Shown here piece after piece: positions 43,536 to 44,269 of a stretch of DNA of 44,269 bases; within the stretch, counting starts at the first letter, position 1, and each line of letters begins with the position of its first letter. A model generated the notes under the pieces. That model saw only the letters and a program-made list of their open reading frames with translations, did no database searches and was not told where the DNA came from. The translations under genes were made by a program, and so were the position numbers. Source of the DNA: Naegleria gruberi (lineage: Eukaryota); NCBI GenBank assembly GCA_000004985.1, contig GG738942.1. The stretch is one strand, 5' to 3'.

Positions 43536-44269
43536 ATGCAACAACGACCTAATTCGTACCAAGTCGTGTTCGATCTTTCGGAAGATGAAGAGGAGGAAAA
43601 TACATTTTCAAAGGCTAAAAAGATCATTTCATCACCACCTAGCCTCGATCCAGAAATAAATAGTAAGAAGAGAAAAAGTTCTGTGGTTTCTTCCAATGAC
43701 GAGGAATCACCATCATCAGGTTCGGAAAAACAAACAAATTTTAAGAAGGTAAAACAGGATAATAGATCGACTATACATAAGAGTATTGATAGTTTTCGGA
43801 AGATGAAAGAGGCTGGACATTCTGCTTCAAAGGTTAGTCATATCTCTGTGATATCGGATAGTAGTGATGAGGAGAAAAGTCCTCCTTCAAATAATTCTGC
43901 CATATTAATATCATCTGATGAGGAAGACGATGATGTTGATTCTTCTGTACAACATATTCTTAATTATAGAGGCCACCATGCATCGAGTAGTAATGTTAAA
44001 TCTAGTCCTAGTAGTAGTAAATCAAAGCCTGCTAAAGCTAGTAGTAGTAAAGCGGACAGTGAAACAAAATACACAGTTCAAACATATCTGAATTTTAAAA
44101 AAAAGAGAACGTCACGACAGGATACAGATTCTGACTCTGAAGAGGATAGAGTAGTTTCTCCTGAAAAAGTTTCGAGAATTTTAAGGAAAACTCGAGAGAA
44201 GAAACTTTCGGAAAGAGAATTGGAAGACTTTATTGTTCATGAGGATGAGGACGAAGAAGAGGAAGAAAG
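43536..44269 (+). CDS. Acidic Ser-rich protein with four SUMO-interaction-motif-like elements. Only the N-terminal 244+ aa are present; the protein continues past the window end. Candidate SUMO-dependent factor of the STUbL, Rad60/Esc2 or Uls1 type.
   Basis: Open from ATG 43536 to the window end with no stop, checked codon by codon. MQQRPNSYQVVFDLSEDEEEENT...ISVISDSSDEEKS...AILISSDEEDDDVDSS...FIVHEDEDEEEEE. Each hydrophobic [VIL][VIL]x[VIL] core is followed by a D/E/S run, which is the SIM architecture. There are also KR-rich NLS-like patches (SKKRKSS, KKKRTSR). The gene is not in the ORF track because no stop codon falls within the window. Confidence 0.6.
   Translation, partial: MQQRPNSYQVVFDLSEDEEEENTFSKAKKIISSPPSLDPEINSKKRKSSVVSSNDEESPSSGSEKQTNFKKVKQDNRSTIHKSIDSFRKMKEAGHSASKVSHISVISDSSDEEKSPPSNNSAILISSDEEDDDVDSSVQHILNYRGHHASSSNVKSSPSSSKSKPAKASSSKADSETKYTVQTYLNFKKKRTSRQDTDSDSEEDRVVSPEKVSRILRKTREKKLSERELEDFIVHEDEDEEEEE

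Follow-up and report, generated by a model that had tools for sequence, protein, structure and literature searches.

What kind of protein begins at the very end of a Naegleria gruberi scaffold, and what might the acidic motifs in its first 244 residues do? The window that we analyzed is the complete 44,269-bp scaffold (GG738942.1), and the open reading frame (ORF) that runs off its end encodes a serine-rich tail with four modules that resemble SUMO-interaction motifs (SIMs). A sequence-only reading of this DNA had taken these modules for textbook SIMs at the N-terminus of a candidate SUMO-targeted factor. We propose that the region is the start of a PICH-like translocase whose putative SIMs, perhaps regulated by phosphorylation, form an array that targets SUMOylated chromosomal proteins. 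We put the probability of this at roughly 55%. What the motifs probably direct to chromosomal proteins tagged with SUMO would then be a DNA-translocating motor and not a ubiquitin ligase. The feature in question (group A is defined by the tree described below) is:

43536..44267, + strand: predicted start (a largely disordered N-terminal tail) of a PICH/ERCC6L-like SNF2 translocase from heterolobosean "group A", 244 codons, truncated by the scaffold end (from the open ORF, alignment, profile, and BLASTP)

The frame opens with an ATG at 43536-43538 and is free of stops to 44267, which leaves two bases before the window ends. Ahead of the ATG lie an A-rich leader and an in-frame stop, and the remaining five frames are stop-rich. 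Because the scaffold ends within the gene, the gene has been cut off by the assembly. The 244 amino acids include 51 serines, 28 lysines, 29 glutamates, and 21 aspartates (21% Ser, 11% Lys, and 20% Asp+Glu). A single-sequence AlphaFold2 model of the fragment has a mean confidence (pLDDT) of just 51 and a predicted TM-score (pTM) of 0.19, which is consistent with a mostly disordered tail. The model contains few helix-prone stretches, and it places short strands exactly at ISVI (aa 103-106) and AILI (aa 122-125). The fragment has no match in Pfam. A word-indexed search of 5.8 billion proteins also returned no match, not even the fragment itself, so the gene is unannotated.

When 1.84 billion representatives were scanned exhaustively with HMMER, the fragment had a single match, P0004 (E = 3.2e-4, 36% identity). 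P0004 has the same succession of modules, and its C-terminal end reads ...YSFQKESVKWM...GGILADEM (that is, ...LYSFQKESVKWM...GGILADEM), which is the start of SNF2 motif I. P0004 is encoded on a metagenome contig from JGI (L002), and P0005, which is 92% identical to it, on an independent metagenome contig from ENA (L001). On each of the two, pieces with SNF2-rel_dom and Helicase_C domains come after the ORF. We joined the pieces of the L001 gene across four introns (GTAAGT...AG, 37-42 nt) to obtain a protein of 1140 amino acids. A search with this protein found full-length relatives in Naegleria lovaniensis (P0006, or C9374_010489; 1092 amino acids, 48% identical across 91% of the query), Willaertia magna (P0007), and Acrasis kona (P0008).

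The fragment is collinear, from the same start, with the N-termini of the N. lovaniensis protein (42% identity; BLASTP E = 5e-9) and of the two metagenome proteins (36-38% identity). Furthermore, a profile built from the three orthologue tails alone gave the fragment 68.4 bits (E = 2e-19), as compared to 1.9 bits for the best of 5000 shuffled sequences, so the match is not compositional. The only detectable relatives of the fragment are the N-termini of heterolobosean proteins, namely C9374_010489 and the proteins from the two contigs; P0032, the paralogue in N. gruberi, does not resemble it. We identify the gene in the window, by its sequence and by the neighboring genes that it shares with the L001 orthologue (see below), as the N. 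gruberi orthologue of the group-A proteins. The ORF is open to the window end and its start is conserved in the orthologues, which bears out the proposal that this is a real protein N-terminus.

What follows the tail can be read from these orthologues. In the L001 protein, Pfam places SNF2-rel_dom at 318-636 (E = 1e-55) and Helicase_C at 695-808 (E = 6.5e-26). The catalytic motifs GLGKT and DEGH are intact, and the precomputed Pfam domains of P0006 match these. Across the full-length orthologues, SNF2-rel_dom, Helicase_C, and ResIII are the only Pfam domains. The sequence-only reading had placed an effector domain beyond the window end, and indeed the scaffold ends in the gene and the orthologues continue into SNF2-rel_dom and Helicase_C. 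It had named a RING, a SUMO-like, or a helicase domain as what might lie there: the orthologues contain the helicase-type domain but neither of the other two. Specifically, we found no RING or zf-C3HC4 domain in the L001 protein, P0006, P0007, or P0008 (Pfam, E ≤ 0.01). The same method picked up a RING (PF13920) in an unrelated family member, P0045, so it is able to detect this domain. Nor did we find a ubiquitin-like or Rad60-SLD domain in the orthologues at this threshold.

Which SNF2 proteins is this motor related to? In a large database, the top matches outside Heterolobosea were all metazoan ERCC6L (PICH), with E values from 1e-133 to 1e-118 and 36-40% identity. With the L001 protein as the query, these were followed by plant CHR24, then by CSB/CHR8 near 1e-75, and then by ERCC6L2 near 1e-60. 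Among solved structures, CSB/ERCC6 and Rad26 were best (E about 2e-77), and there was no ERCC6L/PICH chain among the matches listed. We also built a neighbor-joining tree (Kimura distance, 619 aligned columns, 200 bootstraps), with sampling from outside the Rad5/16 group. The heterolobosean proteins came out together (bootstrap 99%), and they were split into group A (the L001, N. lovaniensis, and Willaertia A proteins; 100%) and group B (N. gruberi P0032, Willaertia B, and Acrasis; 89%). The CSB clade, with the heterolobosean proteins outside of it, had a bootstrap of 99%, and the heterolobosean proteins were joined with PICH and CHR24 at 22%.

PICH proteins also share a PICH family domain, or PFD (PMC8565832). 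In the orthologues, Helicase_C is followed by a contiguous segment, NQYRYFTS..ELLE.FTL....SETQ.LL..LH......LE.H......G[VI][ST].HD.L[YF], which aligns with NPFRYFSKQELRELFT...TQ.QLQSLH...LDEHI...GISDHDLM of metazoan PICH. (Pfam has no PFD model, so we judged this PFD-like segment by alignment, in the orthologues only.) In CSB/CHR8, extra residues break the PFD-like region; these columns were dropped from the displayed alignment. Tetratricopeptide repeats (TPRs), which are a defining feature of PICH, were absent in Pfam both from the spliced L001 protein and from the domains of P0006, P0007, and P0008. We therefore classify the protein as PICH/ERCC6L-like and not as a proven PICH orthologue. A separate gene with a TPR_12 domain lies immediately downstream of the PICH-like gene on L001 (7527-8432, + strand), while metazoan PICH has its TPRs in the same chain; this could be a coincidence or a split arrangement.

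Are the modules SIMs? All four strings that the sequence-only reading had quoted are present exactly (VVFDLSEDEEEE, aa 10-21; ISVISDSSDEE, aa 103-113; ILISSDEEDDD, aa 123-133; and FIVHEDEDEEEEE, aa 232-244), and they lie in a region that is rich in Ser, Lys, Asp, and Glu and has low pLDDT. With slightly adjusted boundaries, the modules are:

43560..43598, + strand: SIM-like module 1, QVVFDLSEDEEEE, aa 9-21; S15 matches the CK2 pattern S-x-x-E

43842..43874, + strand: SIM-like module 2, ISVISDSSDEE, aa 103-113; the sole strict psi-x-psi-psi core; S109 and S110 match the CK2 pattern

43899..43940, + strand: SIM-like module 3, AILISSDEEDDDVD, aa 122-135; S126 and S127 match the CK2 pattern; followed by a conserved extension, SSVQHILNY

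44220..44267, + strand: SIM-like module 4, LEDFIVHEDEDEEEEE, aa 229-244; acidic throughout, with no serine; the window ends inside the acidic tract

By the loose definition in current use, at least three of the four core residues of a SIM are hydrophobic (preferably V, I, or L), the core has an acidic or phosphorylatable flank, and the motif lies in a disordered region (PMC12751080). The flanks contain acidic residues or phosphoserines, and CK2 phosphorylates flanks of this kind; in SIMs of the parallel type, to which PML's belongs, the acidic residues come after the core (PMC12751080). All four modules fit the loose definition, with the cores VVFD/VFDL, ISVI, AILI, and FIVH. The serines beside the cores of modules 1-3 (S15, S109, S110, S126, and S127) match the minimal CK2 pattern S-x-x-[DE]. 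Of the four cores, ISVI alone fits a strict pattern (psi-x-psi-psi or psi-psi-x-psi), ILI being three psi residues in succession, and our self-written JASSA-type regular expressions matched no module. "Textbook SIM" was too strong a term, because just one core is strict and modules 1 and 4 depend on phenylalanine; what stands is that all four modules satisfy the loose definition and are conserved. The broader label of a SUMO-targeted factor remains plausible.

The array is not what one would expect by chance from the composition of the tail. If we count as a relaxed module any four residues of which 3 or more are V, I, L, or F, with at least 6 D, E, or S among the next 8, then the fragment has 4 modules, a number that was reached in 0 of 20,000 shuffles that preserved its composition. 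We also considered that the modules might be recent copies of a repeat. This was ruled out: a search for tandem DNA repeats found only a short GAGGAA-type tract (44241-44267).

Furthermore, the modules are conserved. The 47 residues of the modules average 56% identity, versus 24% for the rest of the tail, when compared to N. lovaniensis and L001 (p = 0.0002; random segments of the same lengths equaled this in 0.02% of 20,000 trials). The four modules are conserved, constrained islands of the tail. Module 1 is VVFDLSEDEEE in the fragment, IVFDVSEDEED in N. lovaniensis, LVDFELSSDEE plus LDLELSDDE in the metagenome proteins, and EIVHDSEDED in Willaertia. Module 2 (ISVISDSSDEE in the fragment) aligns with ISMISDSETDDD and LPILSDSE. 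For module 3 and its extension, AILISSDEEDDD..SSVQHILNY aligns with AIVISSDEE..LQAILHY and TITISSDSDSD..SSVKDILNM, and the Willaertia protein has PIIILSSDSE...LKNIANL, so that modules 1 and 3 are still recognizable there. Module 4 (LEDFIVHEDED) aligns with LEDFIVDDDAED and LKDFIVNEESDD. The invariant columns are D17 and E19 in module 1; S107, D108, and S109 in module 2; I123, I125, S126, S127, D128, I141, and L142 in module 3 with its extension; and L229, D231, F232, I233, and V234 in module 4.

The orthologues have a fifth SIM-like module between module 4 (the DFIV module) and the ATPase: DLISINSDD in P0006 (aa ~262-270) and DIISIDSDYDY in L001 (aa ~247-257). About 130 residues, plus this fifth module, separate the DFIV module from motif I in the orthologues, and the array in N. 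gruberi probably has at least five modules as well. In our relaxed scan, the group-A proteins had 3-4 modules each, and every one of these lay N-terminal to motif I. Among the metazoan PICH, CSB, and ERCC6L2 proteins that we sampled, the number was 0-2, mostly C-terminal to the helicase.

Strings that resemble SIMs turn up throughout the heterolobosean family, but their positions are not homologous. P0032, the group-B paralogue of N. gruberi (1068 amino acids), has N-terminal modules of its own, SIIISSDEEE and EEIVLNEESDD, and the Willaertia A and Acrasis proteins terminate in ...TIEIDD and ...IDVIDVDD.

How might the tail and the motor work together? Human PICH uses three SIMs to bind SUMOylated chromosomal proteins, notably SUMOylated Topo II alpha, and it is thought to remodel or remove these clients by translocation. 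PICH needs its translocase activity as well as its SIMs, and normal mitosis depends on the SIMs and on the ATPase (PMC8565832; PMC11806350). We propose that the heterolobosean tail is an intrinsically disordered targeting region, in which the modules are most likely parallel-type SIMs. CK2-type phosphorylation of the flanking serines could strengthen modules 1-3, and module 4 has acidic residues over its whole flank. Chromosomal proteins that bear several SUMO moieties or a poly-SUMO chain would be bound with avidity by such a series of individually weak SIMs. The array would deliver an ATP-driven translocase to SUMOylated proteins, which might then be remodeled or stripped from the DNA, as has been proposed for human PICH. 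In N. gruberi, the gene would itself run on into the SNF2 ATPase. The missing part is expected to encode about 130 more residues of tail with the fifth module, the SNF2 ATPase, Helicase_C, the PFD-like segment, and a Q/P-rich C-terminus; the acidic tract at the window end should lead to ...YSFQKEG.KW...GGILADEMGLGKT and then to the SNF2, Helicase_C, and PFD regions. The SUMO binding, the phosphorylation, and the nuclear and chromosomal function of the tail are all predictions. Two basic clusters found by regular expression might serve in nuclear import:

43665..43676, + strand: KKRK, aa 44-47, candidate nuclear-localization signal

44097-44108, + strand: KKKR, aa 188-191, candidate nuclear-localization signal

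Compared to PICH/ERCC6L itself, the heterolobosean proteins share an ATPase of the ERCC6 group of SNF2 proteins, followed by Helicase_C and a contiguous PFD-like segment (as seen in the orthologues), and PICH proteins are their best matches outside Heterolobosea (E about 1e-133). In both, a DNA translocase is combined with several SIM-type motifs, and in humans the SIMs and the ATPase act jointly. In contrast, the heterolobosean modules are N-terminal to the ATPase (four in the window and a fifth beyond it), and human PICH has its three in the C-terminal part (PMC8565832). Also, the heterolobosean proteins lack the N- or C-terminal TPRs, their C-terminus is Q/P-rich, and we saw no evidence of a Plk1 docking site in them. 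CSB/ERCC6, Rad26, and plant CHR8 and CHR24 belong to the same broad ERCC6 group of SNF2 ATPases, but CSB/CHR8 form a clade that excludes the heterolobosean proteins (99%), their PFD-like region is interrupted, and our relaxed scan found no SIM-like modules in them.

At the level of motifs, the modules resemble the phospho-SIMs of PML, SP100, Daxx, and PIAS1, which have an aliphatic core followed directly by Ser and Asp/Glu with S-x-x-[DE] spacing. For instance, ISVISDSSDEE and AILISSDEEDDD can be compared with VVVISSSEDSD of PML. These proteins are otherwise unrelated to the heterolobosean proteins, and phosphorylation of the latter is a prediction. (The class of phospho-SIMs that are regulated by CK2 is described in PMC12751080.)

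Several observations weigh against a SUMO-targeted, PICH-like translocase. As to the motor, the sister relationship to PICH and CHR24 has a bootstrap of only 22%, and the TPRs of human PICH are absent from the L001 protein in Pfam. The ATPase is known from the orthologues alone, and we infer its presence in N. gruberi. The N. gruberi proteins in the database include no group-A orthologue, and their sole match to the L001 protein is the group-B paralogue P0032, at 34% identity. As to the modules, just one of the four cores fits the strict consensus, modules 1 and 4 rely on phenylalanine, and SIM-like strings are loose motifs that are frequent in acidic disordered regions. Finally, because the SIMs of human PICH are C-terminal, the heterolobosean array is not positionally homologous to them, and it may be convergent or serve another partner.

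The main alternative is that the tail does belong to a PICH-like translocase but that its modules bind a partner other than SUMO or act in cis. We consider this possible but not likely. The modules could be acidic anchors that bind histones, as in chaperones, or CK2-dependent docking sites, or an autoinhibitory pseudo-DNA that folds back on the ATPase. Many chromatin proteins contain acidic tracts that are anchored by hydrophobic residues; the N-terminus of human Spt6, for example, contains DDFIVDDD. An unrelated family member from Vitrella has a similar RDFIVVDDDE ahead of its ATPase. Modules 1 and 4, being based on phenylalanine, are the least SIM-like and fall outside of the strict SIM patterns. 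On the other hand, modules 2 and 3 (ISVISDSSDEE and AILISSDEEDDD) are close to the validated phospho-SIMs of PML, SP100, and Daxx; the conservation is focused on the aliphatic cores and the adjacent Ser and Asp, not on overall acidity; and the closest characterized relative is a proven SUMO-binding translocase.

Another point in favor of a non-SUMO partner is that a segment of the tail outside of the modules is equally well conserved:

43770..43817, + strand: conserved helix-prone segment TIHKSIDSFRKMKEAG, aa 79-94; the best-conserved element of the tail outside of the SIM-like modules

Its counterparts are QKSLLSYRKKKEQG in N. lovaniensis, QKSILCYKKKKERG in L001, and QQSLENYLKKKENG in Willaertia, with invariant columns K82, S83, K89, K91, E92, and G94, and AlphaFold2 puts a low-confidence helix at residues 77-92. 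The segment follows the pattern [QH]-x-S-[IL]-x-x-[FY]-x-K-x-K-E-x-G, which looks like a degenerate PCNA-interacting protein (PIP) box. If the modules do not bind SUMO, this helix may be the real targeting element. A PIP-like motif beside SIMs recalls Srs2, which is a reader of SUMO-PCNA. A bolder version of the SUMO-targeted translocase, which we offer tentatively as a speculation that we would not bet on, is that the pairing of a PICH-type translocase with SUMO recognition is ancient or was repeatedly reinvented, and that at least five putative phospho-SIMs together with the PIP-box-like helix make up an Srs2-style reader of SUMOylated clients (Topo II, SUMO-PCNA) in the closed mitosis of Naegleria.

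It is quite unlikely that N. gruberi has only a dead or orphaned fragment (left over from a pseudogene, at the end of a haplotig, or due to faulty assembly) and lacks a functional full-length gene. This idea draws on the state of the scaffold, where 27,028 of the 44,269 bases (61%) are N, in six runs, and where the gene lies in the last real block (42813-44269, 1457 bp), at the scaffold's extreme end. Moreover, no N. gruberi protein in the database matches the fragment at E ≤ 0.01 or is a group-A orthologue, and one of the other genes here is duplicated, with at least 90% identity, on a scaffold of 326,815 bp. Against it, there are 244 open codons in DNA with 34% GC, and both the start position and all of the motif islands are conserved with species whose gene is intact. 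The synteny is conserved as well, as can be seen from two genes in the window:

36038-36409, - strand: dephospho-CoA kinase (CoaE) fragment; tblastn against L001 3440-3808, 59% identity, E = 8e-47

37137-37920, + strand: N-terminal part of geranylgeranyltransferase II (GGTase-II) beta; tblastn against L001 3015-2242, 77.5% identity, E = 7e-139

On L001, the orthologues of CoaE and GGTase-II beta sit immediately upstream of the orthologue of our gene (which is at position 3894). The divergent pair (36038-37920 in the window and 1954-3865 on L001) is inverted as a unit relative to that gene, and in N. gruberi a gap of 4.9 kb and an ORF resembling leucine-rich repeats (42813-43053, - strand) lie in between.

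The sequence-only reading had likened the region to SUMO-targeted ubiquitin ligases (STUbLs), Uls1, and Rad60/Esc2. There is some likeness: an N-terminal array of multiple SIMs is the hallmark layout of such proteins. RNF4, Slx5-Slx8, and Rfp1 have about four tandem SIMs in a disordered N-terminus; the fragment, at the level of sequence, has a comparable array (four modules within 244 residues, with low pLDDT), and avidity for poly-SUMO would be the likely logic in both cases. Yeast Uls1 (Ris1) joins N-terminal SIMs to an SNF2 motor, and the idea of a SUMO-targeted translocase fits both it and the heterolobosean proteins. But the orthologues lack a RING (Pfam, E ≤ 0.01), hence there would be no ubiquitin-ligase output, and the tail, with at least 244 amino acids, is longer than all of RNF4 (about 190 amino acids). 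Uls1, which has a RING embedded in its SNF2 domain, belongs to the Rad5/16 group of SNF2 proteins, and the ATPase of the orthologues groups with ERCC6/ERCC6L. Rad60, Esc2, and NIP45 are characterized by a pair of SUMO-like domains at the C-terminus. With neither RING nor SUMO-like domains in the orthologues, we reject the STUbL (RNF4, Slx5, or Rfp1 type), Uls1, and Rad60/Esc2 readings as very improbable; the predicted effector past the window end is almost certainly an SNF2 translocase of the PICH-like kind.

If the modules of this PICH-like protein do bind SUMO, then the partnership between SNF2 translocases and SUMO reaches beyond animals, to a deeply diverging lineage of eukaryotes (Heterolobosea, in Discoba). 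To date, experiments have demonstrated such a link in just two cases, animal PICH and, from another family, yeast Uls1. Because the SIMs would be at opposite ends of the heterolobosean and animal proteins, the functional link would be either ancestral, with turnover of the motifs, or strongly favored by convergence. Multi-SIM tails and SUMO-directed translocases are both known already, so there is no surprise at the level of mechanism; what appears to be new is a variant architecture, a PICH-like translocase with an N-terminal array of putative SIMs. The gene is newly identified, and it is missing from the N. gruberi annotation because it straddles the scaffold end. Its tail is a compact and experimentally tractable multi-SIM region with conserved flanks. 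Our literature search returned no paper on PICH together with Naegleria in this sense and nothing usable on Naegleria with STUbLs, Naegleria with SUMO, or the PFD with CHR24.

The rest of the scaffold contains several other genes, some of them interrupted by the N gaps. (Two of the six gaps are nearly equal, with 1057 and 1056 bases, and one has 19,923 bases.) A scan for bacterial-type promoters and terminators gave counts at the level of the shuffled control and is irrelevant to a eukaryote. Two tandem paralogous genes at 12930-13619 and 13728-14441 (both on the - strand) have N-termini that resemble signal peptides, and the first was scanned and has no Pfam domain. The second (ORF 13731-14441) is EFC36110.1 / XP_002668854.1 of N. 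gruberi, whose copy EFC36961.1, at least 90% identical, is on the scaffold of 326,815 bp; this suggests that the small scaffold may be a haplotig or a segmental duplicate. A tRNA-Asn(GTT) at 2629-2701 (+ strand) and a 5S rRNA at 2774-2892 (- strand, 105 bits) are convergent, 72 bp apart, and located between protein-coding genes. An intron-free ORF of 749 codons at 8750-10999 (+ strand) is rich in Cys/His patterns and has no Pfam match, and its exact sequence is absent from the protein collection; it may be a mobile element or a lineage-specific gene. Lastly, the gene at 14948-15673 (+ strand) encodes a calponin-homology domain and a C-terminal SHOCT motif, with three near-identical repeats, GGS[VI]KHDTGRSIS.EVVK..., between them.

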